The translations under genes and the position numbers were made by a program. A stretch of 61,095 nucleotides of DNA, counting the filler. It is 14 parts of 14 records of this genome, joined end to end, with 100 filler letters (N's around TTAATTAATTAA, not from the genome) between each part and the next. Parts side by side here need not be neighbours in the genome. Positions count along the whole stretch, not along the records: positions 52,305 to 56,764 come from SRR7504441_20298; 13 more parts are not named here. One strand, given 5' to 3'. Numbering within the stretch: the stretch's first letter is position 1; the number at the start of each line of letters is the position of its first letter. Below, piece by piece: positions 5,371-56,581 of the stretch. Under the pieces are notes generated by a model, which worked only from the letters and a program-made list of their open reading frames with translations, made no database searches and had not been told where the DNA came from.

Positions 5371-5470
5371 NNNNNNNNNNNNNNNNNNNNNNNNNNNNNN
5401 NNNNNNNNNNNNNNTTAATTAATTAANNNNNNNNNNNNNNNNNNNNNNNNNNNNNNNNNNNNNNNNNNNN
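5371..5470. other. Artificial contig spacer; the same type occurs at 9142, 13167, 17628, 23799, 27163, 30785, 34510, 38816, 42116, 47102, 52205 and 56765 (each 100 bp)
   Basis: N-run + TTAATTAATTAA (stops in all six frames) + N-run. Confidence 0.99.
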
Positions 5471-9646: not shown

Positions 9647-11920
9647 TCACGATGCATTGGGTGCTGCCGCAAAAACAGCCTGTGAAGCTGCCTCCTGCCA
9701 GTGCAAAAGCGTGAGCGTTGTGACACCGATAGCGTATAGTGCGCTAGCACCTGCGATGCTAACTCCTTTGCCCGAAGTTCAACTTGCTCTAAGAATCTGT
9801 CCAACACCTAGAATCGAGAGTCAGCTCCAAGCTTGGGGTCGGTGATGAGTCACAATGATGTCTGCCTCATTGGAACTTTCAGTCCGAAGTAGATGCAGGC
9901 ATGCGAATGCAATCCCATACAATTTACGCGCTTTTTGGCCATCTGTAAGTAGTTCGAAGCTAGCCGCTTCTCGCCCCTACTAGCATGTCAGAGGACGAAT
10001 CCAAATGTGCTGTGCTACCATAGCGAGAGCGGTTTCATACAGGATCTCTTCTGCTGTTTGGCCATCCTCTGTATTGGGAAGTCCATCGGTAAGACCATTA
10101 GCCTTGTCATAAACTTTGGTGAACAGATCCTGCATTCGGATCAGTAATTCTAAAGGCAACAAACTATTTGTTGCAAGACCTTGGCTTCCGTGATGTGATG
10201 CGAATGACAAGCTGATCCAATCACATTCTGAAGAAGCTGAAGGCACTTTATGTACAGTGCAAGTGCATCACGCGGATTGTGTTGCACCTGGAACCCAGCA
10301 GCGTGATACAGCACTGCAATAGAGCCTACCATGGCATTGGCAATCTCCATGACTACAGTAGCCTGACTATGGCTTGCGTTTGCTAGATCTGCCTCATCCG
10401 AGGCTCGCTCCTGCTGGAGCACTTTTTTGTTGGCCGCAGCTGGCTTGTTCATCAAGTTGGACACCATTCTATCTATGCTATCCATCATCAAGCACTCGCC
10501 AGACTCCCCCCGGTTCTGTAGCACTAGTCCTGCACGCTTGATGGGTCCTGACGGCGGACTTGCCACCTGCAGCAGCAACAAGTCACTCCAAACCCATCCC
10601 TGCTTGGCACCAGCACATAATCGTCTGTCAAGTCAGCTGCTCGCTTGGTCTGTATCGGGCCTGGCCCGTGGGGGGCTAGTTCGATTGAGTTTGGCTGTTT
10701 CAGGCCTGCAACCACCCTCAGTCGCGCCCTTCGTGGCATGCGATCAAGCACCTGGATCAGCGATGGCTGGGTCCACCGTGACAGTCTTGCTCACCGGCTG
10801 CCGAGCCTCAGCACTGCTATTCGAGCTTTCTCCAGCTGCGTCGTCCGCATGCAGGAACGGGTGAGCCAGGCAATCGTGAGCTGACGCCCGGTGTGCTGGG
10901 TCCTTTTGAAGCAGCCTGGTCAGCAGGTCCTTGCATTGCGCCGATGTCACGCCATCACAACTCGGTGGGAGGCTCCACTTCTGCCAACAACCGCAGCTCA
11001 ATGACAGCCGTTGGCAATCAAGCTTGGTTCGTCCGGACCTTCTTTTTTATGTTCTCCAGCAGGTGGATGTAGTTGTCTCCATGGTACGGCGGCTTGCCAC
11101 TGATCATCTGGAACAGGATCGTACCACTCGACCACACATCGGCTTTCAGGTCGTACTTCTGGCTCGAGAGCACCTCAGGCGCCTGCGCCCGGTCGGCCAG
11201 CGGGGCTGGGGCACGCACCATGTACAGAGGCGAGCCGCACATTGTGTCGGCCAGCGTGGTCGGCTGGATCATCCGAGCAAAACCAAAGTCCCCGATCTTC
11301 ACAACCGCCTGCGCCTGCGGTCAGCCAGGCTGTGTGCGGGCCATCGACCGAGCCGGAGTCCTTTGAGAGCAGCAGATTGTGCGGCTTCAAGTCGCGGTGA
11401 ATCAGATTCTGGTCCTGAAGATAAGCAATCCCAGTGGCTGCCCACAGCGTGAGCCGCGACGGCCAGGCGGCCGACCGATGTGCCGCATGAACCCGCGGGC
11501 GATGTTCTCGGGCAGGTGCCCGCCGCGCTTCTTGAGGAATCCGGCCAGGTCGCCCCCGCCGCAGAACTCCATCACCAGGTAGACGTGCTCCCCGTTGGCC
11601 GGCCGCTGGACGGCGTGCAGCTCGACTATGTTCGGGTGGGAGTGCTCGAGCAGGATGCTGATCTCGAGCTGGCCCCGGGTGATCCCCTGGCCCCACTGGC
11701 CCCGCACCTGCAGGTTGTGCAGCAGCTTCTTGTTGAGCTTGCGCACCTCGACCGCCTGCACCATCCTCGTCCCCCGCCCGCCCCGCCCGCCCACCTTGAT
11801 CGCGACGGGAGTCCCGTCGGCCGTCCGTCGGCCGGCGTAGACGGTGGCGAAGGAGCCGGCGCCGATCTTGTTGGCCGGGGATTGGTCGAGCTCAAACTCG
11901 CCGACCGGGACCAGCGGCAT
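9647..11920 (-). CDS. ATG1: ATG1/ULK-family Ser/Thr kinase with C-terminal MIT-like helices, multi-exon
   Basis: IGAGSFATVY, HPNIV, MEFCGGGDL, IHRDLKPHNLLL, KIGDFGFAR, TMCGSPLYM|APE; C-terminal ALALYIKCLQLL and AEEILYETALAM; introns 11756-11794, 11669-11707, 11183-11218, 10981-11038 and others. Confidence 0.85.
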
Positions 11921-12142
11921 CGGACTGGAGCTCGCCGCAAGCTCTGGGCCCACCGGGCAGACTGCTAACTCGGTTCAGCTGGCGGGTGCGTCGGCGCAGG
12001 GGGACGCAAGCTGGCAATATCGGATGGTTGGTTGATATCAAGTCTTGTATTAAGTCCGTTGCCCGTTCCGTTAAATCAGAGTCCGTTGCGAACCAATGGC
12101 GCGCTATATATAAGAGGCCTCAATCACAGCAAAGGCGTGGGG

Positions 12143-13268: not shown

Positions 13269-15334
13269 TCACGCTAAGCTTACACGCTTTAGATCTGATT
13301 GCCCAAAGCGACCACGCTTAATGACACTAATACATTCTTTCTCAGCGCCAGGGGCTGCTCTCTTCTTTGCGACCTTATCGTCGTGTACTGGCCTCCGATT
13401 CAGCGAGCAAGTGCAACTGAATGGCCGTGGGCACTTTTTGAGCTGCCCGTGGTGAGGTTGGGTGAGCCCGCTGTGCGCATAGAACACCGTCGAGATCCGA
13501 TTGGGCGCCGCCAAGTTTGGGCTGTGCTGCCTCGAATTCGCATGTAGCAGCTCCCGCGCATTCATCAAAACCATGCTGCCGCTCGGAAGCTTGAGTGACA
13601 CACCTGCTCCAAGGCTCACTGCAGTCACGGCCGCTGGATGCAGCCTCACCAGGTGTCTCCGCGCCATCAGCTAGGATATCCAACAGCATGTACCGCGACA
13701 TGTCTGCCTCAGTGCACAGCACGCACATGGCAGCCGCTGCCCCTGCCATGTCACTGGAATCCCTGTGTGGGTGGGTCGCGTGGTCGATATTCACTTCGCA
13801 TGCCGCAAACAGGCTCGCAAAGTGCCCCGGAAAACGGCAGTCAGCCCCTTGAATGCTCGCAGCCCTTAGTACGTCTGCAGCCCCTTTGGCAACAGCACAC
13901 ATCTTCTGCCCAGCCAGCTGCCAGCCAGTCAGACCCTCTCCGCTGGGCACGCGCACCTCGGCTAGCTTAAGCACAGTCTGCACAAGATCAGCCTGCACCT
14001 CTGGCGGCACTGAATCTGGCAGCGGCATGCTCGGGCCTTTGTGCCCAAATCTGGACATGATACAGCCAAACCTAAAGCCGGCGCCAGCAGTGGCCGGATT
14101 GGGGCCCTGGCACACGCTGCAATGAGCCGACTGCTCAGCGGCCTGCTGGCGCCGGCTCAGCACTTGCTGGAGCGTGGGTGGCTCATCTGGCTGGACTGGA
14201 CTGGCAGGAGGGGCGGGCGTCGCAGGCTCTTCCGTATCATTGGTCAGGCCAGCGGTGCACAGATGACACAGGTAGTCGGAGTCGGCCGAGACCCGGGTGC
14301 GGGTGTGCCTCTGATGGCGCCAGGCACACTCTGTATGCGACCAGCGCAGGCAGCGGGAGCACTCGACCATCTCCTGCCCATCGTCCAGGCCCACACCTGA
14401 CAGGCCACAGGCACAGTCGACCACCCAGTCCTTTGAGGGGAGCAGCAGCTTGACTCCACCCGGCAGCGGCATTTCGGGGCTCTGACAGTAGCGGATGAGC
14501 CGTCTGCGGGTGGCGTTGGCCTCGATCAGCTTGGCTAGATCTATCCCGTGCGCCTCGGCCACCTGTGCCATGCTGCTGCTCGCCCCCCGCGGCACCTCGT
14601 GTACCTCCAGCCCGGTCAGGCCCTTTGCATAGGCCAGCACACCTCACAGCCGTCAGCTGCGGTGTCCGGAGGGATCAGCAGCTCCGTCGCCCGCCTGAGA
14701 AGCACGTCCAGACTGCAGCAGCAATCAGGCCAGCCCCGAGCCTTGAGTGCCTGAGCCCAGCCAGTCGCGGCTTGTTCATCGCCAGCACCAGCATCGGGTC
14801 GATCGCCAGCCGTTTGGCCACGCTGCGCACCGTCTCGTCCTCCTCGCACAGGTATGTCGGGCGCTCCGGGCCCAACTCCTCCTCCGACGGCACAGCCGGC
14901 AGCAGCTCAGTGCCCATCAGATATGCCCGTGAGCAGCCCCGGTGGCGGGCCGTCCCATGGCTGCCCAGCTGGGCCAGGCTGCCCATCGCGGCCGCCGCTT
15001 CCTGCCCCGGCAGGGCCTCCCATAGCACCACGCAGACCGCCGCCCACACCCCGCCGGGCAGCTCACAGCAGAGCACAGTGGCCGGGGCATCAGCCCGGGA
15101 GAGCTCAGTGCAAAGCTCGAGCAGCAGGTCCAGGTCGCACTGGCCCAGCTCGCCGGCCCGGTCCTCGATCTTGGCCAGACGCCGGGCCTCGGCCTGCTTT
15201 CGGCCCAGCACCGACACCGGCACGCAGCTCACCGCCAGCCCTCCCAGCCCGGTGCGCACCGCCTCGGCCAGCGCCTCCATGCTGGACGCGCTCGCGAGCC
15301 CCCAGGCAGGCAGCGGGAGCGGTTCGCCTTCCAT
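13269..15334 (-). CDS. TET/JBP-family 2OG-Fe(II) dioxygenase (animal-TET-like) fused to two LysM-like domains and a PHD finger
   Basis: CSVCQGPNPATAGAGFRFGC, HPHRD (HxD, 13759-13767), ELLHANS (His 13542-13544), NRISTVFYAH..LTQPHHG; PHD DCACG..DDGQEMVECSRCLRWSHTEC..YLCHLC; introns 14713-14750, 14605-14642, 13918-13956, 13604-13649. Confidence 0.85.
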
Positions 15335-15402
15335 TGATCCGCCCAGCCTCCCGCCACAAGCCGTTAGATTCGGTTGACCCCGCTCGGCGGCGAGGCAGCA
15401 GT

Positions 15403-16350: not shown

Positions 16351-17298
16351 TTATTGCTCTTCTGTGGTGGATTGCATCTTTTTGAGCTCATCTCTAAAGA
16401 ATTCGATTTGGCTGTTGTTGTCTTCGATCGACTTCATGGCCTTAGAGTGCTCCTCCCGAATCCGAGTGAGCGTATCGTTATTCTCGCGGGCGGCTGTATG
16501 TTTGGCTGCCTCGAGTGTGTCCGCCTGCCCGAGCTCAGCGGCACGCCCACGCCGACCGCGCACCTCATTCTGCAGGACTGCCACTTCCTTCTCTGCTTCC
16601 GCTATCTGTCAGAGCAGAGCTCAGCGACGCGAACTGGCAGGGCGCACGTGGCTGCGCAGGCTCAGGATCTCCTCGTCGCTCTCCCAGGCAGTGTTGGTAA
16701 CATGGTCCACACTGCCCTCGAACACCGTGCGGTAGGCGTCGATTGTCAGTCGATACTGGTCCTGCGCCCGCTGCAGCATTGTCCCCCGCTCGATGCACTC
16801 GTGGGTCACCCGCCGGATTATATCATCTGCCCGCCCGCTCGCCCTCGACCGCGGGGCCTCGCACCGAAACAGTTGGTGAACAGCTCCCGACGCACCGGGC
16901 AGATCCCGTCCAGCCTGGCCTGCTTGTCTGCGAGATCGTGGTCCAGTTTGTTCTGCAGCGCCTTGAGCGCCGGCTCCCACCGGCCGGCACCGTCAGTGTG
17001 AGCGCGTCGATACGGGGCGATTCGTTGGCCAAGTCGAGCGCGCGGCCCAGATTGGCCGGCGGGCGGGACGACGAGCTAAGCTCCCCCCTGCGCCGCAGCT
17101 CAGGCGAACCTGCAGCACCGGCGCACCGGCGGGCTTTGTTGTGGTTGAGGGCCTTGGGGGCCGGCTGTCGCGCAGACTGAGCGGCTGCTGAGCGGGCAGG
17201 CGCACCGTCGGGCGCTCGACCCCGTGCGAGTACAGGGGCGCGTTGGCGGCCTGTCGGGCAGCCGAGATGCGGAGCTCGGCCAGCAGACCGCCGCTCAT
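16351..17298 (-). CDS. Axonemal dynein light intermediate chain (p28/DNALI1)-like, 6 short introns
   Basis: Spliced KLDHDLADKQARLDGICPVRRELFTNCF|DDIIRRVTHECIERG. Confidence 0.8.
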
Positions 17299-20768: not shown

Positions 20769-21815
20769 TTACCTACGCAGCGCCGCTAGCCTGCCCGCCC
20801 ATCAGCCCGCCCTGAGGCCCGCCCGTCGCCTGGCAGACAGCTCGTCGTCCTCGTCGTCCCCTCCGTCGGCCAACATGGGCCCCTGCCACCAATCACGCCC
20901 GTGCACACATCAGTTGTGCCTGTTCCTGCTGCTGAGTCGCAGCCGGCTGGGCCAGCTGGCTGCTCTGGACCAGCCCCGCGGTGCCCTTGGCTCCTTGCAT
21001 CTGGTTCATCGCCAACTCATCCATGATCTGCCGCCCCCCGCTCCGCTCCGCTCCCAGGCCGGCTGGCTGCCTTGTTGACTTCCTCGCCGGCCTGTTCCTC
21101 CTCGTCTTCCATCAGCTCGTCGAACATGTCGTCAAAGATCTCCGCGGTCATCTCCTGCCCCCCCCCATCGGCCCACCCCCGCAACCACACCGGCACCCCC
21201 TTCTGTTGCTCCATTGCGAAAGCCGCTCCGAGCTGCTGCACCTGACACGCAGTTCGGCCGGGCCCCAGCCGGCCAGCTCGCCTCGACCGGATCCATCGTC
21301 TCGTTCACCGACTGCATCACCTCCACGCCGGACTTCATCGCCTGCCCCGCCCGGTCGGCCGGCCCGCCGGGCTTGCACATTCGTCATCGCCAGCGAGTTT
21401 TTCATGGTATCTGCCTGCATCGACATGCCGCTCAGCTGGGCGTTGGTCTGCCCGCCAGCTCGGCCCGCCGCCCCCGGGGCCGCGCGCCTGGTACAGCTTG
21501 GACTGCTGCTGCCGCAATCGGACCAGCTGCTTTGCCAGCTGCCGCGCGCAGTCCACCCGGCCGTTGGCGGCGTGCTTCTTCATCTCCTTCATGATCTTCT
21601 TCTCCTGCAACGGATCAGCCGGGCCGGCCGGGCCGGGCTGCCTCCATCTCGCTGTGCTTGATCTCTCTGCTGATCTCCCGGCTTTGCTTGCGGGTCTGGC
21701 CCCTTGGTGAGCGAGCCGCGGCCGCCCGGCGGCGCACCGAGCGCTTGGCGTCCTTGAGCTGCTCCTGCGGGGTCTTCTGGGGCTCGGCCTCGCCGAATAG
21801 CGAGAAGAATGGCAT
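20769..21815 (-). CDS. ESCRT-III subunit CHMP2/Vps2-like (Snf7 family), at least 8 introns
   Basis: KTPQEQLK, EKKIMKEMKKHA, ARQLAKQLVRLRQQ, IFDDMFD, IMDEL, LSAR|LAALRR*. Confidence 0.85.
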
Positions 21816-23798: not shown

Positions 23799-24098
23799 NN
23801 NNNNNNNNNNNNNNNNNNNNNNNNNNNNNNNNNNNNNNNNNNTTAATTAATTAANNNNNNNNNNNNNNNNNNNNNNNNNNNNNNNNNNNNNNNNNNNNCG
23901 CGAGACCCGCCGGGCCGGACGCCTTACGCCTCATGGCTGTACGCAATGTTGAGTGATTGCCAACGCGCGAGCCGAGAAAAGATTATCTTTTCTCTGTTTC
24001 ATTGATCTTTATCAACGCTTTATCAACGGAGCCTACGTACAGCTGCTGCTGCGTGAACAGGGTCGCGACCTTGACCGGACTCGCGCGTAACCCACGCG

Positions 24099-27045: not shown

Positions 27046-27304
27046 GGCACAAAGTATTCGTCGGCGGGCTGGAGCTTGAGCTGGAGACCCTGCCCAGACC
27101 GGCCGGGTCCGGTGAGGCGCTCGTCGAGTTTTATCGGGGCGTTGGGCCGGACGGAGGCGGCCNNNNNNNNNNNNNNNNNNNNNNNNNNNNNNNNNNNNNN
27201 NNNNNNTTAATTAATTAANNNNNNNNNNNNNNNNNNNNNNNNNNNNNNNNNNNNNNNNNNNNCAAGACAAGCTGCCACAGGCCTAGTTAGTAGAGTCTAC
27301 TGGG

Positions 27305-30300: not shown

Positions 30301-30670
30301 CTGTGTGAATGGTCCAGCGGACTGCATGCTGAACGTCACCGTTGCAAGCCGCGACCATGTGGCTGTGAGCCAGAGCATGCTGCCCCTCGGCCTTCCAAGC
30401 AACTTCAAATTGCCGACTTCGTTTGTTAGTCACGATGTTCAGCCTGCAGCTACAGGATCATCGTCCGTGGCAATCACTTTGCGTAGCAACGCGACTGCGC
30501 TCTACGTATGGCTTAGCACAATAGAGCAGGGCCGATTCTCGGATAACGCTTTTGTCCTCATGCCTGGACTTGAGAAAACTATCGAGTTCCTCTCCTTCAT
30601 GGAGACAGGCGTGTCGGCGACGTCGCTCATGGCTTCGTTGCGTGTCGAGCACCTAGGCATGTACATGTAG
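27305..30670 (+). CDS. GH2 beta-mannosidase-like enzyme with a PAN/Apple-like insert, intronless
   Basis: ATVPGDLVTDL, GWDWAP, LWWPRG, RGANLVP, NMNMIRVWGGGIY, RRLSHHPSIIGWSGCNE, WQLNEIWP, FSDNAF. Confidence 0.9.
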   Translation: MGDHLGTLGAASSFLHRAFFWQRTSCRGEMNGRSLEASRRTVAIPGEVVLVLWIVVLLPSAAATWRDGNPIATTAILSLNGDDWRVDGVGRAFSPNCTGGGPNGDNGGCAICKPGTNYTAPAVGPHGWYSVESLGMGDSWTQADCAELCAATDGCAAAVWTSNPPAGTGCGFRTVAEVGQGKLTANGSTGCVPVGLGSVRVSIAATVPGDLVTDLQRAGKVRDPLSSNNHKDPSQVQWWNGASYSYSKRFNLSTSVLASASVRLVFSAVKMGATISLNRHLLGNVTNQHLRYEFEVLPLLVAGSNTVTVRFDSTIDTGGRFMASSGGWDWAPYSRMRDHGGRAVWTRGITGSVYLAATGRNTVAIDALSPAILYKGALPTTMLQDDYSHVFDVNVTVHLAAPEASGTLTVVGSWGSSTSVPLSITAADGGTKAVAVLLPSVSSVKLWWPRGMGGDQVLYNVTAQFAPSPGLGGATVTATRRVGFRTAFLTTGNDTDKEWLAANKNGNGNAIPANTMMFRINGAPVVMRGANLVPMEALDGRYVEGMHRQLVKSAAAANMNMIRVWGGGIYPLAEFSDACDEEGVMTYIDLMYAQGGHGAVQPITHADQERELRYQVRRLSHHPSIIGWSGCNECEQTPASVMTTVAEEDNSRVIRGACPFGLYTSGVHTLTGLPNGNPLTWTQNTGTQNCDNHALWCNKSSGVPWQAGAEQHGPYNNGDGGMWQTINSGGGGGLFIDPAVIVAVQPGFQVGPSQPGYFKSETGCTSMSSFESMSATLSPSEYGVNTEPFRERNYAANSLVLSYFGSDRDMGAVGVVALQSQTYLSMLAASLERKSDIESWRSTGIWGMLMWQLNEIWPTGGWGSLEYGTPVKGQVIGGRWKIMHHALQQSAYADVVASCGKEMTSTGAGEYGKGGIAGSIANGSALCYVRNDLPQPFVGVVTVDAIHYTNGTSTRLSTAPVALGPGGGAVGFFCALNSTTVSASKPNCPSFKDLYSRAGCVNGPADCMLNVTVASRDHVAVSQSMLPLGLPSNFKLPTSFVSHDVQPAATGSSSVAITLRSNATALYVWLSTIEQGRFSDNAFVLMPGLEKTIEFLSFMETGVSATSLMASLRVEHLGMYM

Positions 30671-32196: not shown

Positions 32197-34360
32197 CTAT
32201 ACTGACTCTATCCCAGCAAGATTTCCACCATCAACCCATGCACGAGTAGCTGCCTGCAGCTTGAAGAGATTTTTCCTGTCTAAACGCTCAAGTTGCTTGA
32301 TAACAGCCCGTGCAGTTCCTTTCAGGCTGTTGTCGTTGCCCCGTGGGGAGGGGTAGAGCATCTCAGATTGTGCCAACTCTTGAGCAAAGACTGGGAGCTC
32401 CGCTTTGACTTCAAATCTGCAGCAAATAAACATGAGTTTGATCTGGCAAGGCAGAGAACTCACATTTCTTCCTTGAGGCTTTTGACAGGAGACTCGACTG
32501 GGGCTCTTGCCGGTAGTTCCCGGGGAGACTCCAACTGGCTGCCCCGTGGGGATCTGGGGTCAGCTCCCAGGAATGGGCTTGCTATCTTCTCTGTGCTGAT
32601 GCCTGGCACGCTAGGCTCTGTCATGTTTGCATACGGTAAGGTGAGGTCGAGTTCCCTGGGGGAGCATGCTGGTGTCGTGCCCCAAGAGGGCACATGCTCT
32701 CTCGGGCTTGTGGCCCCGCCCTCTCTGGGGCTTGTAGCTTCACTGTCTGGCTGCTCGGCCGCTGTGAAATCGCACCAATTTTCGAGCTCTGTTGGTCGTA
32801 GAGCTCGTAGCGTCTCAAACTGCTTTGACACCTGTGCCCGAGACAAATACCCAAGCAGGCCAGCTTTCAGCTGTTGAGTTGCAAGCGTCTGCTGTTGTCC
32901 CTGTTTGCGCTGTCGCCGTGTCTTGTACCCCCTCGCTGTCTTTTGAATCATGCACGCTGCTGCAGCATTAATCTGAGCACGGTACATACTGTCATACTCA
33001 CTTTCAGTAGCCACCACCACTTCATCAGGCCCAGAGCTACAGCCAAAATCTGCATAGGTGGACTGTCTTTGCTGTCGTGGTGGGGTCTCTGGTCCCTGAT
33101 GGTTGCTATTGCCAAGCGAGCCACCAAATAGTATCATTTGTGCCGAATGGGGTTGCAGCTCTGGACTTTTGGTCCTCCTGTGGTTCGCCGCATCAGGTGG
33201 TCTGGGCTTGACTGGCCTGCGCTCTGTCGAACGGGCGGACTGGTGCCGCGAAGGTGGATGAAACGTGGCTCTAGTGCCTGTGTCCTCTTGCTCAGTGCCG
33301 AATGGTGTGCGCCCGCTACGCGCAGACAGGTTGCGTGCATTCGACCCACTAGCTGGCCTTGACCTCGCTGGGTTGCTAGGCTGAGCTGGGCGGCCACGGC
33401 GAGTCGAAGCAGGCTGGGCCGTCGCAGGCCGCTGCTGGCGAGCGGGGCGAGCGCTGGTCGGTCGGGCCGGCCGCCATTGCGTGGCTCGGGCCTTGGCGGT
33501 GCTTGGGCGCTTCTTGCGTGGCTTGGATGGCCTCTGAGGCAGCAGGATGCTCGAGTGGTTTCTCTTGGCGTGCTGGTCGCACTTGCGGACCATTAGCTCC
33601 TCGAGGTCGTTCCCGCGCTGCTGGGCTAGTTCGCCCAGAACCTGCTTCCCCATAGCCCGCAGCGACACAGCACACTGCATCCACGCTGCAACAGAGCACC
33701 AGCACTCAGCACCCAGCGGCCTGAGCCAGGCTCACCTGCGGGCAGCAGCACGTGCAGCGACTCCGGAATCTGACTCAGATCCGCAATTTGTCGCATCGCT
33801 CGCCGGTTGTAGACTATCGCCGGCGACTTGGCCCGGATCGCCTGGAACAGTGGCGACGGGGCCGGCTTCTCTAGCTGCTGGATCACCTTGCTCGCCTGCT
33901 CGAGGGCCGAGTGCGGCTTGCCCAGCGTGTTGTGCACCGAGGCTATGTTGAGCCAGGTGGTCAGCCGCCGGCCCAGCTTTTCGGAGGTGTCCAGCTTGAG
34001 CGCGGCCTGGAAGCACTGCAGTGCGCCGTGCAGGTCCCCCTGCAGCTTGCACTCCAGCGCCGCGCTCAGGCTGCGGTCGACCACGTCTGGCCCAGGCGGG
34101 GGCGCCTCCGCGTTGCTGCGCGGGGTGTCGCGCGGCGATCTTGGGTCGAGATCGGACTTGGCGACCCGCGGGCTGGCGAAGGGCGTCATCCATGGGGTGG
34201 AGCCGGTGCTGGAGCCGGACCGGACCGAGATGAGCGACGCGCGGTCGACAGCACGGTCGATGTGCCGGAGCGGGGGCACCGGCCGCGGCGTGTTCTCCCG
34301 CGACGGCTCCGGGCCAGGGATGCCCATCTCGTGCCGGCTCAGCTGCCAAAAGTGCTGCAA
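32197..34360 (-). CDS. TPR- and IQ-motif protein with low-complexity regions, multi-exon
   Basis: TPR-like GDLHGALQCFQAALKL and WLNIASVHNTLGKPHSALE; IQ AAACMIQKTARGYKTRR. Confidence 0.6.
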
Positions 34361-34723: not shown

Positions 34724-36992
34724 TTATGAGGCGGCAGTCGAGTTGGTTGCGAGCCCTTTCTTCTTGAGCATGAATTCGATAACTGGATCCCGACCGCGGA
34801 ACTTTCGGAACAGCTCAGCCGGGTCCTCTGAGTTGCCTGCCGAGTAAATGTGCTTCCTACACGCTTTTGCGGTCTCTGGGTCGAATATATTGCCAGTCTC
34901 TTTGAAGGCCTCGAACGCATCTGCATCCAGCACCTCCGCCCACAGATACACGTAGTACCCAGCAGCGTAGTGTGAGCTCGAGAACAAGTGCTGGAAATGG
35001 GCTGGCCGGTGCCGCATCACAATCCCTTGAGGCATCCCAAGCCTAGCCAGTTCGGTCTCCTCAAAGGTAGCCAGGTCAAACCCGCTAAAGTCCGTTGTCA
35101 GGTGCATACCCATATCAAGCAGCGCGCAGGCCGTGTACTGCCACCGCAGCTAGTCAGCGCTCAGGCAGAATAAGTGTTATCGGCAGCTGCACAAGCTGTA
35201 CCTCGATTGTAGCAAATCCTTGGTTAAACTCTTGGGCCGCTTTGAGCTTCTTGATCAGCTCGTCGGGGACCGGCTCGCCAGTTTGGTGGTGCAGCGCAAA
35301 CTCCTCAAGAACCTCGGGTTGCTCCAGCCAATGCTCCATTAGCTGCGACGGCAGTTCCACAAAGTCGGTTAGCACGTTGGTGCCTGCGAGCCTGGCGTAG
35401 GTGCAATCGGATAACATGCCGTGATGTCCGTGGCCCATCTCGTGGAAGAGCGTGCTGGCGTCGTCGAACGAGAGCAAGGTCGGATCCCCGCGCGCGAAGT
35501 TATTGTTGTTGCTGATGATTGGGATCTTGAGGATCTCAGGTTGATCGGGTGAAAGGTTCTTTGTCTGTCCTCGGTACTCTGCCACACAAGACATCGTCAG
35601 AGTGCCGGAGCTGCAGGCAGGCTGACCTGACATCCAGGCCCCGGAGGACTTGAACGGCCGGGCAAAGTTGTCCGAAATGAAGATTGCCACTGTCTGGCCG
35701 TTCTCCTTGACTTGATACGCCTTAGCATCAGGGTGGTACAGCTGGATGTCTGGCCGAGGCACGTACTCCAGCCCATAAAGCCTGTTGGATACGGCCATCA
35801 CCGCCCGCGTGACGTTCTCGAGGGTGAGATACGGCTGTCACCCGCAGCCAGTCAGCGCTAGAATGAGTGTCATTAGCAGCTTAGGTGGGTGTACCTTGAG
35901 CAGTGACTCGTCAAAGTCGTATCGCGCCTTCCGGACCTTCTCTGCATAGTAGCGCCAGTCCCAGGGCATGATCCCTCCCTCGAGCTCCACCCCCTCGCTC
36001 TTCACATACTCTTCGAGCGCCGCCCTCTCCCGATCAGCAGACACTTTCGCCTTTGCCCACACTTGCTCCAGCAGATCCATCACAGCCTTTGGCTCTTTCG
36101 CCATCATGTCTTCGCACTGGTAGTGCCCAAAGCTTTCCTTCTCGTGCAGTTTTGCCTGCTCGTGCCGCAGCGCCAGTGCCTCCTGAGCCAGCGGGAGGTT
36201 CGCCCTAGCCGACTCTAGCTCGCCGCGCTTTGTCCAGCCGGCCCAGGCCTTCTCACGCAGGTCCCTTCGATCGGCGAACGTCAGGAACGGTTCGACGATC
36301 GACCGACTCAGCGTGATCACATGAATATCCGGCGCCGGCCGCTTCTGGCCGGCCGCCTTCTCTTCGGCCGCAGTGCGCGCTGCAGCGACCAGGCCTTCGG
36401 GGCAGCCGGCCAGGTCGCCAGCCTCCAACGAGAGCGGCATCTGCCATTCCTCTTCGTCCGCCATCACGTTCTGCGAGAAGGCCGTCTGGATCTCGGCCAA
36501 CCTGGCCATGATCCGTGCGTTCTCGGCCTGCTTCTTGGTGTCAAACTTTGCCCCGTGTCTGCAGAAGTCGGTATAAAGCCGCTCGGTGAGCCGGATCTGC
36601 TCCGGCCCGAGCCCGGCCCGGTTGGCGTGGACCCGCTCGATCTTGGGGAACAGCCCGGCCAGCGTGTAGTACCGGCTGGTGTGCCCGGCCAGCAGTGGGG
36701 CCATCTCGGTCTGAACCGCCTGCATCGGCTCGGTGTTGAGGCTGGAGCATAGGTTGGAGAATACCAGCGAGATCTTGGAGAGCTGGCCACCTGCCCGGTC
36801 CAGCGCAGCTATCACATTGTCAAACCCCGGCTCCGCGGTGTCGTCCACGATCGCCTGGAGCTCGTTCAGCTCTTGGGCCATCGCAGCATCGAAGCCGGGC
36901 CGGAAGTGGCTTGGCTCGATCCGCGCGAAGGGAGGCATCCCGAATTCGGGATCGGAGACCGTCCAGTCCTCGAGCAGCGGGTTGGTGCTCAT
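34724..36992 (-). CDS. M3A metallopeptidase (peptidyl-dipeptidase Dcp / oligopeptidase A-like), 3 introns
   Basis: NPLL, PWDWRYYAEKVR, TLFHEMGHGHH (HExxH), DFVELPSQLMEHW, YAAGYYVYLWAEVLDAD; introns 35835-35894, 35579-35626, 35138-35201. Confidence 0.92.
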
Positions 36993-44963: not shown

Positions 44964-46998
44964 TTAATCGTGAGCTGGATTTGCCGCACTATGGAAATCA
45001 CGGAGCTCGTCCCGCCATTGCGTGTAGCTTTTGGTGGACATGTAGGCTTGCGCCGACAGCTCCTGCTTGTCTAGCCGATCCTCGGTGAGCAGCCGCTCAT
45101 ACACACTGTTGACTAAATTGGGGTTGATATGCAAACTAAAGTTGAGATGCTGGAAAACCTGCCACGCACGGCGTCTGTGCTGACGGCCGCCCAAGCCAAA
45201 TACCTCAAACTCAGTCGCAAGGACTTCCTGGGTGGAGACTAGCATTTTTGTGGCGATGTCTTGCAATAGGTCCTTAATCCGCCTATCCAGCACTCAGGCC
45301 AGCCACCTGACAGGGCTACACAGGAGGCTGCTTCGGGATCCATCGCATGTTCGGCTGCTCATTATCGTTCTGTGAGTCCTCTGGGCTATCTGAGTCTGAA
45401 GACTGGCATGCCTGCGGCACCCACCACACCTGCGCCAGATTCGCCCAGGCCATAGCTGCAGGTGACCCCCTCATCGCCATCGTCTAGAAACTCGTCATCG
45501 AAGAAGCCCTCGGTTGTGTTGTACGGCCGCTGCGTGTAGTCCTGCGAGGCGAGAGAGATCCCTGCCCCTTGTGGTGCCGCACACTCGTTGTTCAGCTTGG
45601 CCGCGAGCAATAAACAGCAGCCTGCCCCCCGCTCACGCCAAACAGCCTAGTGTTTACCTGCAAACACATTCCTGTTCGCCTTGGTCACCACGCCCTTGAG
45701 CACCAGCAGCTCAAAGTATAAGTGTGCCAGCGCCACAGTGGCGTACCTGACCCCGAATCAGCACATCCAGCGGCAGGAGCCACTCTATCTCTGGGCAGTG
45801 GCAGCAGGCAATGTCGAATATCCGTCGCTTCACTGCCCGGATCTTGGACAGTGAGATGTCTGGTCGGAGCACTGGGTGGTGGTCGCAGCTCTCATGCTCG
45901 AGCATAAACTGCTCGTTCAGCTCGTTCTTCAGGTCCTTCTCCCGCACATACGGCACAACTGACACCACAAAGTGCCCCGGCGCAAAGCTGAGCACCTGTA
46001 CCACCCGCAGGCTGACCGTCCGCCGCCCAGGCAGAGCACCGTCCGGTCTTTGGATTGCTTGAGCTCCGGATCGTCCAGGTGGAACGGGTCCAGCTGGCCG
46101 TCCTCGTTGTTGAAGAACTCGAGCAGCGGCACGTCGTCGTCAAGCACCTCCTTGTATGACTTACCTGGGTTCTTCCTCTTTACTTCAGAGTCGCAGCACA
46201 GCTCGCGCGCCGACATGGTCGCCGAGAGGCAGCATTGCCCCCCTAACTTAAGCAGCTTATGATACGTGGCCCTGGCCTCCTGCAGAAAGCCTGCGACCCT
46301 GGTCACAGCCGCCAGTAGGGGCGAGCACCTTCCTCGGCCGCCTCCTCAATTTCCAGGTGGGCCTCCTCGGCGTCTTGCACGGCGATATACTTAGCCCTGA
46401 TGCAGCTGGAGACGGCCACCGGCGTGGCAAAGCCTGTCCCGGGGCTCCTCCCGGCGCAGAGCCGCCAGAGCACCGGAAGTAACGTGGAGTACCGCGCGGC
46501 GCGACTGCTTAAGCTTCTCCCTGAACTCGTCTGGGTGCAGCTGCCGGTGCAGGATCTCCGACAGGTACTCATCCCCCGGCTGGTCCGCGTCGTCGGCCGG
46601 CTTGAGCAGGGGCGACGGCGGGTTCCAGCCCTGGGACTGGTCCAGTGCGATGTGCATCAAAAAATCTGCGGCCGCCCAGCGCGCCTCGTCGGTCATGTGG
46701 TCCTCGCACTCATCAGACGAGTCCGAAGAGTCCCTGCCACCGCCCGTCGGCCCGCCCAGCGGGCGGCGCACCGTTGCACCGCCGGGGCGACGGCCCGCTC
46801 CTCCTCCAGCGGGTCCATCTCTATGTTGAGGAGGAAGTCGGCCGCGGCGCTCAGCCAGGGCACCGCCTCCTCGTTGAGCTCCGGGTTGGACCCGAAGCTC
46901 CGCCATACACTGTACCGCCGCGGTTGCCCCCCCACACCCTCCCCAGCCATCGGAGCCTGGCCGCTCTGGACCGGTGCCCGGCTGGCCCTGCTCCTCAA
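44964..46998 (-). CDS. CABLES-like cyclin-box protein, multi-exon; start uncertain
   Basis: AAADFLLNIEMD / AAADFLMHIALD, LDDPEL..KDRTVL, SVVPYVREKDLKNELNEQF, ISLSKIRAVK, LAAKLN, VLATEFEVF..LNFSLH. Confidence 0.8.
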
Positions 46999-47546: not shown

Positions 47547-48571
47547 TCAGGGCTTGGGCAGCCAGAACGCCAGGCTGCAGCAAGCGGAAGCGAGCATCAT
47601 CTTCTTCGGGTTGAATTTAACACAACCAACTGGCGCGCTGTGGCCCGTTAGCCTGATCGGTGCCCCGCCCGCCTGGGTCTCCCAGGCGTACACCGCGCCA
47701 TCCTCCGAGCCGGAGAGCACAAACTGGGCGTCGGGGCTGAAAGCAGGCTCGAGCACCATCCCGGATGTGTTGGTATGCCCTGAGTACTTTCTGACTAGAT
47801 TCCCCTCAAACGCATCGACCAGCATCAGCTGCCCGTCCAGGGTGGCCGCCAGAATGTGGTTGCCGCACGGCGAGAAGCAGAGAGAGCTCCACAGTGCCTC
47901 AGATTGGCCCTGCATCGGCTGGTTGAACGTGGCGAACGGGCCTTTGTCATAGTTCTTCACGTCATAAAGCTTAATCGTATTGTCTCCAAATCCCACAGCC
48001 AGCACACTCCCTTGCGGGTCGAACGCCAGCGCCGACCGCCGGGTGCCCGACCTGATCAGGCCTTGGCATTGGGGGGCGCGCACGTCCCAGAATCGTACAG
48101 TGCCGTCCAGCGAAGCGGAGGTGAAGTTATCGCTTGTGGGGCTCATCGCCAGAGAGACCACCGGCTTGCGGTGCCCTTTAAAGTATCGCAGGTACCGCAG
48201 GTCGTGCAGCGATAGGTACCCTGCGCCCTCCGCTCAGCCTGGGCCCTGGGGGCGGGCGCACTGATATCATCGGACCAGTCCACGTTGCTGGCGTGCACCA
48301 CCGATTTGTCATCGTGTGTGAACCGAATCAGCGACACCCCGTACTTTTTGCTCGGCAGCTGCTTCTCCCGGCTCCCGTCGGTGCAGTTGTACACGTTGAT
48401 CAGCTGCCGACCGCTGGGCGGCCGTCGGGGCTGGCCGGGCACCTGGTCGTTGCCAGAGGTGACGCAGAACTCGCCGTTGGAGGAGAAGTCGAGCGAGTTC
48501 ACCGGCTGGCTGTTGTCCTTGAACACCCGCGCCGTCTTGAGCGACCCGAGCACCGCCCCATCCAGCCTCAT
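47547..48571 (-). CDS. WDR82: WD40 protein WDR82/Swd2, 2 introns
   Basis: SKKYGVSLIRFTH, IRYLSLHD..LRYFKGH, SASLDGTVRFWD, IKLYDVKNYDKGPFATF, VKFNPK.MMLASAC..LAFWLP. Confidence 0.93.
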
Positions 48572-52304: not shown

Positions 52305-52625
52305 GGGGGGGGGGGGGCACCGCAGCTGGGGCACGGGGTGGTCCGATGCGGGCACTGGGATCGGACGTGCCGGACCAGATCGGTGCACTGCAGCCCCTGG
52401 ATCCCACACCCGAGCGGGCAGGGCAGACCCCCCCGGCTCATCCTTCAACGGAACATCATGTGCCCGCCCCACAGCCTAGGCCCGTGCTGCCTGGCTGTGC
52501 TCAGCAGCCTCTCGGCTTGGATTCAGTTCCGTTGCTCGAGTGGGGCTCGGCTCATCTTGGTGGCGTCGGCTTGCGAGATGAGAGCCCTCTGTTGATCCGC
52601 CCGGGCGACTTAGGCCAGCAGGCAT
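52305..52625 (-). CDS. 5' part of a TRAF-type zinc-finger protein
   Basis: PCPLGCG...DLVRHVRSQCPHRTTPCPSCG. Confidence 0.55.
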
Positions 52626-52691
52626 GATCTCGAGCGAGTCGATCAAGGTGCCCGGCCGGGGGTCGGGTCGGGTCGAGCGGGCGGCCAGCTG

Positions 52692-54356
52692 ATGGCCGAG
52701 TCGGTCGGTCTGGAGACTGGCGAGCCAGTCAACTCCAAGCTGGCCGAGGACACCGAGTTCCGGACCCGCGAGGTGATCCAGGAGGCGGCCAAGTTCATGC
52801 GCCATGCCAAGCGCACCACGCTCACCGCTGCCGACGTCAACAACGCCCTCAGGACTCTTAATGTGGAGGCACGCCGCCGGGCCGGGCTCGGGCCGACCGT
52901 GGTGCAGCCTCTCTACGGGTACAGCAGCTGCGGGCCAGACCGACTCAAGTTCGGGTACGCCGCGGCCAGCAGCGTCTACTACACTAGCGACAAGGCAGCC
53001 GGTCCCGGGGCCGGCCGCGATCGGTTGCAGGAGCTGCCGCTATCGGATGTGGTCCACATGGAGTTGCCCCAGTGCCCTCTCGAGCCGATGCTCCAGTGCC
53101 ACTGGCTGGCGGTCGAAGGGATGCAGCCGGCCACTACCGCCAACCCTTCCGGTCCGCCCTGCCGCCCCCTGGCGCTTAGCTGCAACCAGGCTCTGATGAG
53201 CTCACCAAGGGTCGCAAGCGCAAGCTCGGCGAGGAGCAGCCGCCGGTGGGTCGGGCCGGGGCCAGGCCGGAGCTTGGGCAGCTGGTGACCAGCAAGGTGC
53301 GGCACGTGCTCTCTAAGGAGCTCCAGCTCTTCTTCCAGCAGGCGGCTCGGCCGGTTGAGTGAGCTGACTCTTGGGGGCAGCTGGTGAACGGAGTGCGCGC
53401 CCCGGGGAGCGAGCTGCAACGGCGGGTGCTCGAGACGATCTCTAAGGAGGCCGGGCTGCACCAGCTGCTCCCGTACATCTCGCAGCTGGTCGCAGACGAG
53501 GCGCTCCATGCTCCATCCGGAGGTGAGCCGTGTGGCAGGTCTCCAAGCACCTCCGCGAGCTGCCGCTGCTGCTCTCTCTGATCCAGCTGGTGCAAGCGGT
53601 GCTGGCCAACACCGAGCACCTGCACGTGGAGCCCTACCTGCACCAGCTGATGCCGCCGGTGCTCACCTGCCTCGTGGGCAAGTCACTCTGCCACGCCGCG
53701 TCCGAGGACCACTGGAAGCTGCGCGACACCGCCGCCGCCACAATCCGGACAGTGGCCAACCGGTGGGCTGGCCGGCCGGGCGCCGGTTGACTGGTCGGTC
53801 CAGGTTTGGAACGGCGTACCCGAGCTTGCAACCGAGGATCACCCGCACGCTGCTGCACGCCCTGCTCGACCCGCTCAAGCCGCTCACCACCCACTACGGC
53901 GCCATCGTCGGGCTCACCGCGCTCGGGCCGGACACGGTCCGCTCGCTGCTCCTGCCCAACCTGCTGTTCTACACAAAACTGCTCGGTGCGTGCCGGGCGC
54001 CGCTGCCAGTGAGCCGGGCACAGTGCCAGAGCTGGAGCCGGTCGGCAGCCAGAAGGCGCTCGAGGCCTCCAAGTGCTTCTTCGCGCTCGGGCGGGCGGTG
54101 GGCGCTCTGCTGCACCACCAGCCGTTTGCCGTGTGCAGCAAGGACGGGCTGGTGCCGGCTGCCGCTAAGGGGGGGCTAAGTGCGGGGGCAGCCCGGGAGC
54201 GAGGAGCTGTCGTGGGACCAACTGGCCGAGCTGTTCGGCGAGCAACTGCTCCCGTTCGTCGGCCCGCCCGAAGCCACAGGGCTGTTCGGCTCGGGCGTGC
54301 CCACGGTGAAGGCCCGGAGCAGCTCTCAGAAGCAGAGAGCTCCCGCGTTGAGTTGA
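52692..54356 (+). CDS. TAF6: TFIID subunit TAF6, 9 introns
   Basis: IQEAAKFMRHAKRTTLT..DVNNALR..NVE|PLYG, HWLAVEG.QP, HVLSKELQL, GLHQLLPY, EPYLHQLMP.VLTC, DHWKLRD, LQPRI, TTHYGAI.GL. Confidence 0.95.
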
Positions 54357-54568
54357 GTTGAAGATTTCTAGGCTCTAAACTGACCGAGTACACGCTGCTG
54401 TGCTCGTGTATCAGTCGTAGCGCTAGGACCGGAAATGTGTACTAGCTAGAATGACCAAGTGTTTGCCATGTTATTGATTTTCTTTTTTCTTTTCGCGTTC
54501 CCAAAATTAGAGTCCGATCTCAGACTCTCAAGCTGTCCTTTGGAGGGCAGGAGGAGAGACGGTGAGCC

Positions 54569-56581
54569 ATGGAGTCCGACTGGGGCTGGACCGAGAGCCC
54601 CAGCGGCGTGCGCGAGTTCCTGGCCGAGCTGGCGGCCCGCAGCCGGGGCCGGCTGGTCCAGCGGCACAGGAGCCTTCTCCGGGCGGTGGCCCAGCTTGCC
54701 TCGACCGGGGCCAGCCTCCCTCAGGCCCTCCGCACCCTCGCCGACCGACCAGCCAGGCCGCCACAGCTGCCGGCCCGGAGGGAGCTCGGCCCGCTGGCCG
54801 GGCCCGGGGAGGCCCAGCCGCCGCTGGGACCGGATCTGCTCGAAATGGGGTTCGAGCCGAACGCGGTGCGCCGGGCCGAGGCGGCTGTGGGGACCAGCGG
54901 GTGGCGGCGGAGTCGGATGATCCAGGCGGTCCGCTGGCTGCTCGACCACGCCGGAGAGCCGTCGATACACTCACCGCTCCCGGCGCCGCCCGAGCAGCAG
55001 CCGACGGTGCCCCGGGAGGGCGGGGAGGCCTGGGCCGTGATTGTGGCCGGGGATGAGGCGGACGACTCGGAGGTGTTCGGGCTGCACCAGGTGTTCAACT
55101 TCTGCTGCCGGCAGCTCGGGCGGGAGCGCGTGATCCTGATCGCCAACCTGCAGGAGCTGAGAGAGCAGCGCGCCCGTGCCGCCCAGACAGGCCTGCCAGA
55201 GCTCTCGCCCAACAGCGGGCTCGAGCAGAACCGGCGATTCCGGGCCGAGCGGCTTGCCTCGCTCGAGCGGAACTGGGGGCTGCTCGAAGGGCCGGCCGAC
55301 TACGACTTTGAGCGGGCCAACCCCAGCACCGTGCTCAGAGTGCTCGCAGGCCAGCCGGCGGCCGAGGGCGACAAGGTGCTCCCGAGCAGCCTGGGCGCCC
55401 TGTTCTTCTGCTTCGCCGGGCACGGAGGCTCGTTCCGGTCGGTCCCGCGCAACAGCTCAGTACACCAGCGGGTGGACTGCGACCTTTGTGGCCAGCCGCA
55501 CCCGGCCAGGCCGACCCGAGAGGAGAGCCAAGCCGACTGCCGCTGGCTCGAGTGGCTGCATCAGGACTGCAACTGCGCGTTCGTCAAGGCGGAGGCCACG
55601 CAGTCCACCGAGCACGACCAGACGCTGGCCCCCACAGACCTGGTCTTCACACCGTTCGGGCCTGCCACTGTGGTCGCTCGCCAGCCGTCCGAACCGTATG
55701 AGCTCTGCGCTGCCACTGCCGGAGGCCGGCCGGTGATCCACAGGCATCTCTACCAGATAGAGCCGACCGGCCCCGGCTGGCGGAGCGCCGGTGGCGGGCC
55801 CGGGTGGCAGGCTGCGGCGGTGGGGCGGCTGTTTGAGCTGGTGGCAGCCAGGCGGTGCCCTGCAGGCGTGCTGCAAGCGCTCTGGCGATCGCTGGGGGAC
55901 GCGCGGTGCTGGGTCGGGCTGGTGCGGGCGGTGGGCGGGGCGTGCGGGGTGCGGCGGGACTGGATGGTGCTCCAAGTTGGGCCGCGCCAGTGCAACCACT
56001 TCCACTCTTCGCTCAAGACCCGCGAGTGGGTGCTAGGGATGCCGCACCCGGCCGACGACCGGGGGATCTTCGGGCCGGTCTCGTGGGGCTACAGTGAGTA
56101 CGACCAGCCCTGGAGCTTTCTGGCCTGGCAGCATATCTTCGAGGGGCTCGGGCAGGTCCGGGCCCGGTCGGCGCACACCAAGATCCTGGTGCTCACCGAG
56201 GCCTGCTACAGCGGCGGGGCGATCAAGTTCCTCAAGGACGCCACCCTCTCGCTCTGGCGCGAGCTCGACCAGTGGCCGCTCTTCCTGATCGCCACTGCCG
56301 GCGAGGCCCAGCAGAGCGTGGCTGGGCTGCTCCAGCTCTTCGTCGGCAAGGTGCGCGAGGCACTCGAGGGCGAGGGCTCCGGGCGGCTGCTGGAGGTGTT
56401 TGAGAGCGCAGTTGAGGCGTACTGGCGGGTGAATCAGTTTGTACTGGACGCAAACGCCAAGATTGTGCGGCAAGCCTCCCGGAACGTGCGCCGGATGGCC
56501 GAAGTGCATCACTCGTTTGCCGAAAAGAGCGGGATACAAGACGCCCACGTGAGCTGCTTCTTTACGCAACCAAAATCATAG
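54569..56581 (+). CDS. UBA domain + clan CD (legumain/C13-like) cysteine peptidase with a large insert
   Basis: UBA LLEMGFEPNAVRRA..AVRWLLDH; WAVIVAG; FFCFAGHGG (His 55421); VLTEACYSGG (Cys 56204); LIATA...QQS. Confidence 0.7.
   Translation: MESDWGWTESPSGVREFLAELAARSRGRLVQRHRSLLRAVAQLASTGASLPQALRTLADRPARPPQLPARRELGPLAGPGEAQPPLGPDLLEMGFEPNAVRRAEAAVGTSGWRRSRMIQAVRWLLDHAGEPSIHSPLPAPPEQQPTVPREGGEAWAVIVAGDEADDSEVFGLHQVFNFCCRQLGRERVILIANLQELREQRARAAQTGLPELSPNSGLEQNRRFRAERLASLERNWGLLEGPADYDFERANPSTVLRVLAGQPAAEGDKVLPSSLGALFFCFAGHGGSFRSVPRNSSVHQRVDCDLCGQPHPARPTREESQADCRWLEWLHQDCNCAFVKAEATQSTEHDQTLAPTDLVFTPFGPATVVARQPSEPYELCAATAGGRPVIHRHLYQIEPTGPGWRSAGGGPGWQAAAVGRLFELVAARRCPAGVLQALWRSLGDARCWVGLVRAVGGACGVRRDWMVLQVGPRQCNHFHSSLKTREWVLGMPHPADDRGIFGPVSWGYSEYDQPWSFLAWQHIFEGLGQVRARSAHTKILVLTEACYSGGAIKFLKDATLSLWRELDQWPLFLIATAGEAQQSVAGLLQLFVGKVREALEGEGSGRLLEVFESAVEAYWRVNQFVLDANAKIVRQASRNVRRMAEVHHSFAEKSGIQDAHVSCFFTQPKS

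Follow-up and report, generated by a model that had tools for sequence, protein, structure and literature searches.

The window analysed here is a stretch of 61,095 bases, a concatenation of 14 contigs (3.3–6 kb each) from a metagenome bin, and it carries eukaryotic genes that are interrupted by very short introns, many of which begin with GC in place of GT. Our catalogue of the window holds 48 introns, 38 with GT donors and 10 with GC donors (21%), and within the homology-supported subset of 25 introns the ten GC donors make up 40%. These donors are found in the genes for TAF6 and CHMP2. We consider it likely, with a probability of roughly 0.8, that they belong to ordinary spliceosomal introns of the major (U2) type in the nuclear genome of a telonemid, where a GC donor is tolerated after an exonic AG and arises from G+C pressure.

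The introns of TAF6 were placed with a spliced protein-to-DNA aligner (our own script) in which GT and GC donors carry the same cost, other donors are dearer, and the 3′ end is required only to be AG. Alignments to two orthologues, P0001 and P0004, agree on the first nine introns of the gene, five of them GT and four GC. In a tblastn comparison with P0001, the window carries extra residues at 52869–52907 (exactly 13), 52995–53030 (exactly 12) and 53342–53380 (exactly 13), and the frame changes at 53501–53538. The features of the gene are as follows, with a slash marking the exon–intron boundary.

52624..54356, + strand: TAF6 coding region with 10 introns (4 GC, 6 GT); Pfam TAF and TAF6_C; spliced alignment to P0001 and P0004.
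52648..52688, + strand: GT-AG intron, 41 nucleotides (nt), AAG/GTGCCC; spliced alignment, spliced in an RNA contig.
52869..52907, + strand: GC-AG intron, 39 nt, GAG/GCACGC..GTGCAG; in frame, no stop, 13-residue gap against P0001, alignments to P0001 and P0004.
52995..53030, + strand: GC-AG intron, 36 nt, AAG/GCAGCC..TTGCAG; in frame, no stop, 12-residue gap against P0001, spliced alignment.
53152..53189, + strand: GT-AG intron, 38 nt, CCG/GTCCGC; spliced alignment.
53246..53281, + strand: GT-AG intron, 36 nt, CCG/GTGGGT; spliced alignment.
53342..53380, + strand: GC-AG intron, 39 nt, CAG/GCGGCT..GGGCAG; in-frame stop, 13-residue gap, spliced alignment.
53501..53538, + strand: GC-AG intron, 38 nt, GAG/GCGCTC..TGGCAG; frame shift, tblastn and spliced alignment.
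53763..53803, + strand: GT-AG intron, 41 nt, CCG/GTGGGC; spliced alignment, kept in a DNA contig (X5 record 7).
53986..54023, + strand: GT-AG intron, 38 nt, TCG/GTGCGT; spliced alignment.
54152..54191, + strand: probable GT-AG intron, 40 nt, CTG/GTGCCG, donor not fixed; restricted predictor and sequence reading.

For the tenth intron the orthologue alignments gave 54131–54191 (GT) or 54135–54180 (GC) instead; an intron near 54131–54191 is real, its donor uncertain and 54152–54191 the favoured boundaries. Two further introns that the aligner called past 54262 were rejected, as RNA contigs are continuous over 54204–54457. Within the GT intron 53763–53803, one DNA contig of another run has G for C at position 53773, possibly a population variant or a low-depth error.

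CHMP2, whose best solved relative is CHMP2A (7zcg_B), was aligned to P0019, a 228-amino-acid orthologue from a EukProt transcriptome that was found in a protein-representative search and whose N-terminus is the same as that of the window gene. The exon ends agree with P0019 residue by residue across all nine introns. A search for relatives with exon 3 as the query (40 amino acids) returned no match.

20769..21815, − strand: CHMP2 coding region with 9 introns (6 GC, 3 GT); spliced alignment to P0019.
21696..21737, − strand: GT-AG intron, 42 nt, TCG/GTGCGC; spliced alignment.
21605..21641, − strand: GC-AG intron, 37 nt, GAG/GCAGCC..TTGCAG; spliced alignment, required.
21448..21487, − strand: GC-AG intron, 40 nt, CAG/GCGCGC..GGGCAG; spliced alignment, required.
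21342..21378, − strand: GT-AG intron, 37 nt, AAT/GTGCAA; spliced alignment.
21242..21281, − strand: GC-AG intron, 40 nt, GAG/GCGAGC..TGTCAG; spliced alignment, required.
21155..21196, − strand: GT-AG intron, 42 nt, GGG/GTGCCG; spliced alignment.
21028..21070, − strand: GC-AG intron, 43 nt, AAG/GCAGCC..CGGCAG; spliced alignment, required.
20883..20919, − strand: GC-AG intron, 37 nt, CAG/GCACAA..TGGCAG; alignment restricted to GT or GC donors, required.
20791..20829, − strand: GC-AG intron, 39 nt, phase 2, CAG/GCGACG..GGGCAG; spliced alignment, read-through meets a stop.

An earlier note on this DNA, made from the letters alone, had proposed four GC donors in TAF6 and five in CHMP2. All four TAF6 donors were recovered at the positions it had given, in tblastn or spliced alignments, and the alignment to P0019 confirmed all five in CHMP2 and added a sixth, at 20883–20919, which was absent from that list. 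At this junction the alignment with free choice of donor preferred a CA..AG intron, 20883–20928. The note's estimate of 10 GC donors among roughly 50 introns likewise stands beside our 10 of 48, a catalogue limited to introns of 34–47 nt ending in CAG.

Several observations indicate that most of the GC donors are forced. Reading through is impossible for eight of the ten GC introns, which either have a length not divisible by three or carry an in-frame stop, and the two that are in frame and free of stops (52869–52907 and 52995–53030) interrupt the invariant motifs NVE/PLYGY and YYTSDK/E. When GC donors were forbidden, the alignment score fell from 1484 to 1334 (−150) for TAF6 and from 667 to 443 (−224) for CHMP2, and the resulting GT-only models contained introns of odd sizes (27, 45, 50, 73 and 83 nt) and dropped conserved residues such as VE, ADE, LQ and VNK. 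Shifting the boundaries at the GC introns by 1–3 bases, as judged by sequence reading, produced only non-canonical termini. All ten GC segments are missing from the transcript-derived orthologues.

We also compared the TAF6 contig (52305–56764) with RNA and DNA contigs from four of the five runs that contain small shares of it. In X1 record 1, a 190-nt contig of a poly(A) metatranscriptome with zero differing letters, position 52645 is joined directly to 52687, skipping 41 nt, and with the cut shifted by 2 this junction is that of the GT..AG intron 52648–52688. A DNA contig (X2 record 3) covers 52620–52806 unspliced, and other DNA contigs retain the TAF6 introns 53763–53803 and 54152–54191. 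Since 52648–52688 is missing from the RNA contig and present in the DNA contig, it is removed at the RNA level, and TAF6 is expressed. At a GC donor, an RNA contig of a relative (X3 record 5) matches 53302–53341, departs exactly at the exon end, and past 53341 codes for I-A-T-G-V-K-A-P-G-S, which is the next TAF6 exon; this agrees with an exon end at 53341 rather than at another GT site, 12 nt downstream.

The catalogue combines three sets of introns. Set A, placed by orthologues, comprises 22 introns (12 GT, 10 GC), nine each in TAF6 and CHMP2 and four in a gene for the inner-arm dynein light chain p28; set B consists of three in-frame GT introns seen as gaps against solved kinases; and set C of 23 introns, all GT, that come from frame-restoring predictions (34–47 nt, CAG end, GT or AG/GC donor) or from sequence reading. 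This incomplete catalogue leaves out two GT introns of an M3 peptidase gene (60–63 nt), a possible 50-nt GT intron at 33686–33735, unverified in-frame candidates and two doubtful GC candidates (33686–33720 and 46397–46433). Predictors based on codon score only, which over-called GC donors and misplaced known junctions, were set aside, as was a predictor with a Markov model of intron content, which recovered 11 of 19 known introns; no claim of a GC donor rests on any of them.

The introns are 34–44 nt long (mean 39.0), with a mean G+C of 0.775 (range 0.59–0.93). All 22 introns of set A end in CAG, although the aligner demanded only AG, and the 15 nt preceding this CAG are 49% G, 40% pyrimidine and 14% T; a polypyrimidine tract is thus lacking. 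Mean length is 39.0 nt for 35 GT introns and 38.8 nt for the 10 GC introns, and G+C is 0.78 in both (p = 0.98), in a comparison whose GT class includes one false intron, 36597–36632. With equal length, equal G+C and the same CAG ends, GC and GT introns thus look like one population. A motif that loosely resembles a branch site, and whose A lies 11–20 nt from the 3′ end, is present in 8 of the 10 GC and 27 of the 35 GT introns. Pairing of the splice sites in a hairpin, tried as a further feature, was rejected (mean z of 0.03 for 26 introns against dinucleotide shuffles, p = 0.88).

What distinguishes the two classes is the sequence around the donor. The 38 GT donors follow the pattern G/GTGCGC, with G at −1 in 32, G at +3 in 34, C at +4 in 27, G at +5 in 23 and C at +6 in 23; 26 of them begin GTGC, 15 GTGCG and 10 GTGCGC, a departure from GTRAGT. 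GC donors can be written AG/GC-R-N-S-C, with A at −2 and G at −1 in all ten. Past the purine at +3 (A in 5, G in 5; n = 10), they have no intronic consensus: position +4 is C in 4, G in 4 and A in 2, position +5 is C in 5, G in 3 and A or T in 1 each, and position +6 is C in 7 of 10. The strong +3 to +6 consensus of animal and plant GC-AG introns was not found. An exonic AG precedes the donor in 10 of 10 GC introns versus 11 of 38 GT introns (p = 5.4e-5), and in sets A and B taken together in 10 of 10 versus 4 of 15 (p = 5.5e-4). These counts bear out two statements of the earlier note, that every GC donor follows exonic AG and that positions +3 to +6 vary. The note had gone on to suggest a relaxed recognition of the 5′ splice site, perhaps with divergent U1, U5 or U6 pairing; the features seen do fit an unusual donor code, but the strictness of the AG rule speaks against calling it relaxed.

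Because the exonic AG is so strict at GC donors, we favour compensated pairing over a loss of recognition or a neutral +2 position. Recognition of the 5′ splice site would depend mainly on a G on either side of the boundary (−1 and +1), a pyrimidine at +2 and a G/C-rich stretch from +3 to +6. A change from T to C at +2 would be tolerated after an exon ending in AG, as this ending would re-establish U1 pairing, and strong genomic G+C pressure would leave about a fifth of donors as GC. On this proposal, GC donors would be spliced by the same machinery as GT donors, U1 pairing would lie behind the AG rule, and G+C pressure would be the cause of the high GC share. U12-type introns are defined by the donor /RTATCCTT and by AT-AC or GT-AG termini. 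None of the 10 GC hexamers is a TATCC-like, U12-type donor, and among the 38 GT donors T occurs at +3 in none and at +4 in one, and A at +5 in five.

Several lines of evidence bear on the source of the DNA. Pfam searches of stop-free pieces of open reading frame (ORF) identified eukaryotic genes, including those for TAF6, axonemal dynein light chain, protein kinase, WD40, PHD/Tet_JBP, JmjC, ABC1, GH2, M3 peptidase and others, and G+C across the whole window is 0.48–0.70 per 2 kb. For the largest TAF6 exon, the top relatives are four proteins of 431–435 amino acids with records of ~1.4 kb, the size of a transcript. One of these four, P0004, is labelled Telonema subtile by EukProt and is 68% identical along the exon used as query; Balamuthia follows as the next match with a name, at 58%. 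The bin is thus probably telonemid, with Telonema subtile as the closest named relative, a placement that comes from named orthologues of the TAF6 exon only and not from ribosomal RNA or a multi-gene tree. When metagenome contigs were searched with the telonemid alignment of TAF6, a single distant locus came back (L001, 33% identity). We found no description of a telonemid nuclear genome or of telonemid nuclear introns in a literature search confined to part of the published record; the one telonemid genome paper that it turned up is mitochondrial.

The contigs are separated by spacers of 44 N + TTAATTAATTAA + 44 N, one at 5371–5470 and the others at 12 further places; the contigs possibly derive from different organisms of the bin, and genes on either side of a spacer are unlinked. 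Intron density in the window is very uneven. ORFs of 436–1127 codons in genes for GH2, ABC1, JmjC and a UBA protein are unbroken (27287–30667, 24075–25796, 25855–27162 and 54566–56578), in contrast to small genes (20769–21815 and 52624–54356) that have one intron per 60–180 nt.

As far as we found, the phenomenon is already known in kind, and what is new is the telonemid lineage and the extreme form, with G/C-rich introns of ~39 nt. Classical GC-AG introns, as described in older surveys, have a strong flanking consensus. The introns described here resemble them in the GC at +1/+2, the AG at the 3′ end and the compensating exonic AG at −2/−1, and differ from them in a share that is 10–40 times higher and in the lack of a strong intronic consensus from +3 to +6. 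In animals and plants, GC-AG introns make up 0.3–2% (10.1101/2024.10.30.620910). The figure of about 1% given in the earlier note therefore holds in general, but it overlooks two groups of GC-rich marine protists.

In the haptophyte Emiliania huxleyi, 241 junctions were mapped by hand, and 56% of them are GC-AG (Feldmesser et al. 2014, PMC4028052). Like the source of our window, this is a GC-rich marine protist with a large share of GC donors and a fully canonical AG acceptor, and its GC donors were accepted because nothing else mapped, as here (PMC4028052). It belongs to a lineage in another supergroup, the available part of the report mentions neither ultra-short introns nor an AG rule (PMC4028052), and the share in our window (21% of all 48 introns, and 40% of the 25 with homology support) is lower. 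GC-AG introns reach about 14–17% in two GC-rich pelagophytes, Aureococcus anophagefferens and Pelagomonas calceolata, which the authors attribute to G+C content, compared with 0.32% in the lower-GC Aureoumbra (10.1101/2024.10.30.620910). The share is similar to ours, the proposed cause is identical and both are marine picoplankton, whereas pelagophyte introns average 103–177 bp against 34–44 nt here, and the pelagophyte figures are genome-wide predictions against one 61-kb window (10.1101/2024.10.30.620910). A GC-AG share of at least 10% in a G+C-rich genome is found in our material at the level of the window only (10 of 48).

Two further systems resemble ours in other respects. GTGCGTG is the atypical donor of Ostreococcus lucimarinus introns outside chromosome 2 (Irimia & Roy 2008, PMC2483917). 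It is close to the GTGCG (15/38) and GTGC (26/38) of our GT donors, and many of our introns have a CTGAC-like branch motif. The Ostreococcus introns are longer (median 111), and frequent GC donors are not reported in the part of the paper available (PMC2483917); the species is a green alga, whereas the orthologues here indicate Telonemia. Paramecium tetraurelia has introns with a mean of ~25 nt (PMC2483917), a similarly narrow range of lengths near a presumed minimum, but these are A+T-rich (83.8%; PMC2483917), in contrast to the ~78% G+C and the G-rich stretch ahead of the acceptor seen here.

To these two GC-rich marine lineages with inflated GC-AG the window adds a third, unrelated one, here with ~39-nt introns that have no polypyrimidine tract. 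A comparison now becomes possible of G+C pressure driving the turnover of donors from T to C, with exonic AG as its price. There is also a practical consequence: gene finders limited to GT-AG would mis-build about one-fifth of this lineage's introns, and half in some genes, and the resulting frameshifted or truncated proteins would enter telonemid bins used to place a deep eukaryote branch.

Against this explanation we weighed several alternatives. In one, the telonemid spliceosome itself has changed, such that the 5′ end of U1 (and/or U6) pairs with G-Y-G-C-G-C, position +2 is simply a pyrimidine and GC donors are standard. The canonical reference points are a U1 5′ end of ACUUACCUG and a U6 ACAGAGA box. 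Such a change would account for the atypical GTGCGC of the GT donors (GTGC in 26/38) and for GC donors that are likewise G/C-rich at +4 to +6, and the atypical GTGCGTG donor of Ostreococcus led its authors to raise a possible change in small nuclear RNA (snRNA) (PMC2483917). A neutral +2 should, however, need no exonic AG, yet AG precedes all ten GC donors and a minority of GT donors, and we regard the change as unlikely. An Rfam search of the window found no snRNA gene: 0 matches passed the gathering score, and with the limit relaxed to E ≤ 1 the one match, to IRES_Bip, is of the kind expected by chance. Also doubtful, in our view, is the wider proposal of a recoded 5′ splice site in telonemids. 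Their U1 (and perhaps U6) would pair with G-Y-G-C-G-C, which would make regular donors of GC and GT alike, and introns would be measured by a ~39-nt ruler with a G-rich tract that replaces the pyrimidine tract. If true, this recoding would constitute a coherent alternative code of intron definition in a deep-branching lineage.

The distribution of the GC donors raises another possibility, namely that they are deliberately weak and concentrated in TAF6 and CHMP2 for regulated intron retention; several of the introns are in frame or would bring in a premature stop. They account for 10 of the 19 introns in these two genes and for 0 of the 29 catalogued elsewhere, and high intron retention is reported together with GC donors in E. 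huxleyi (PMC4028052). In the transcriptome of the relative, the isoform P0027 diverges from P0019 exactly upstream of ..Q/TNAQL, at the junction of the GC intron 21448–21487, and this would look like the pattern expected of a retained intron ending in CAG at that position. The clustering is, however, post hoc, as the two genes were picked for their GC donors, and the homology-supported introns elsewhere amount only to four in p28 and three in the kinase gene, all GT. The SWIRM gene on the CHMP2 contig has four predicted introns, again all GT. Taken together, this leaves regulated retention improbable.

We consider it very unlikely that some GC introns are in-frame protein insertions, or have misplaced boundaries and in truth use GT. 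This idea draws on 52869–52907 and 52995–53030, which are in frame without a stop and which, if kept, would give proteins containing ARRRAGLGPTVVQ or AAGPGAGRDRLQ; on the in-frame segment 36597–36632, picked by eye as an intron and found to be coding; and on the TET site described below, which has a GT alternative of equal length. It is contradicted by the eight introns that cannot be read through and by the 150 and 224 points and conserved residues lost in GT-only models, and the two in-frame segments lie inside invariant motifs and have the size, CAG end and AG/GC start of the others. Removal at the DNA level, an assembly artefact or mobile 'introner' copies are extremely unlikely: many introns look similar by eye (GGCCGG-rich), but DNA contigs of independent runs keep three TAF6 introns, one of which is missing from the RNA contig, and substrings shared among 45 introns have a mean of 5.73 against 5.59 ± 0.11 under a first-order Markov model, with 8 pairs sharing at least 10 letters against 7.5 expected and a 19-mer outlier that involves a coding stretch. 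An introner family was rejected on these statistics, which equal the Markov expectation; a shared module occurs only in two introns of the M3 peptidase gene.

Other points weigh against reading these introns as ordinary U2-type introns under G+C pressure. Support for the GC junctions is entirely comparative, from orthologous proteins of relatives that are ~63–72% identical, and the RNA contigs covered none of the four TAF6 GC introns. For the two GC introns that are in frame and free of stops, the basis is homology alone, and they could be insertions. Of the 48 introns, 23 are only predicted, and the rules behind them (34–47 nt, a CAG end, GC accepted solely after AG) could conceal further GC donors as well as longer introns; the GC share itself comes from 61 kb of one metagenome bin. 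Clustering of GC donors in two genes is unexpected under a plain model of mutational pressure, although, being post hoc, it serves as a lead only. Finally, the M3 peptidase contig shows another style of intron, and the bin may be mixed.

A GC donor proposed in the earlier note for a third gene is ambiguous. A large gene at 13378–15900 (− strand) has a PHD finger and a weak Tet_JBP match (E = 0.003–0.004), and as both lie below the Pfam cut-offs, its assignment as TET is tentative.

14713..14750, − strand: candidate GC-AG intron, 38 nt, CAG/GCACTC..CTGCAG; TET/PHD gene, ambiguous, frame-restoring.

This GC donor restores the frame, but it is not unique in doing so: the adjoining 38-nt GT..AG segment 14751–14788 (CTG/GTGCTG..CTCAG) fits equally and leaves an identical downstream frame. 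The codon score mildly favours the GC reading, in which 14751–14788 is kept as exon (6.1 versus 2.0 bits), and a Pfam search across the junction gave no LysM or other domain to decide between the two. We lean towards the GC donor at this site and excluded it from the counts.

Two genes in which all introns are GT served as comparators. The p28 gene was identified by Pfam and solved structures and aligned to P0029 and P0030; the kinase gene was analysed with solved kinases and a predictor. One of the kinase introns, 11183–11218, corresponds to an exact 12-residue gap against ULK1, and the other two in-frame introns were derived from 27 surplus residues.

16351..17298, − strand: inner-arm dynein light chain p28 gene (comparator), all introns GT.
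16953–16990, 16827–16864, 16606–16647 and 16525–16563, − strand: p28 GT introns, orthologue-placed by spliced alignment to P0029/P0030.
17165–17205 and 17088–17126, − strand: p28 GT introns by sequence reading.
11021..11974, − strand: ULK-like kinase gene (comparator), GT introns.
11756–11794, 11669–11707 and 11183–11218, − strand: in-frame GT introns of the kinase gene, from gaps against solved kinases.
11438–11475 and 11315–11348, − strand: frame-restoring GT introns of the kinase gene, from the predictor.

The WD40 ORF gave no match to solved structures at E ≤ 0.001, and an in-frame candidate in it, 48404–48442, was dropped from the final count.

The M3 peptidase gene (− strand), on the contig at 34610–38815, has introns of a different kind at 35835–35894 and about 35139–35203, which are 60–63 nt long, begin with GTAC.. 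donors and are A+T-richer. This pair shares the 3′ module GCGCTGACTnGCTGCGG, which occurs nowhere else in the window, and could represent a second class of intron, an intron duplication or a contig of another organism. The candidate in-frame intron 36597–36632 in the same gene was rejected, as it is coding in the alignment to solved relatives. It contains the 19-mer mentioned above: 19 nt of the first GC intron of TAF6 (52877–52895, + strand) are identical to M3 peptidase coding sequence at 36603–36621 (− strand), in the same frame (RAGLGP), where ~0.12 matches with up to 3 mismatches would be expected by chance.

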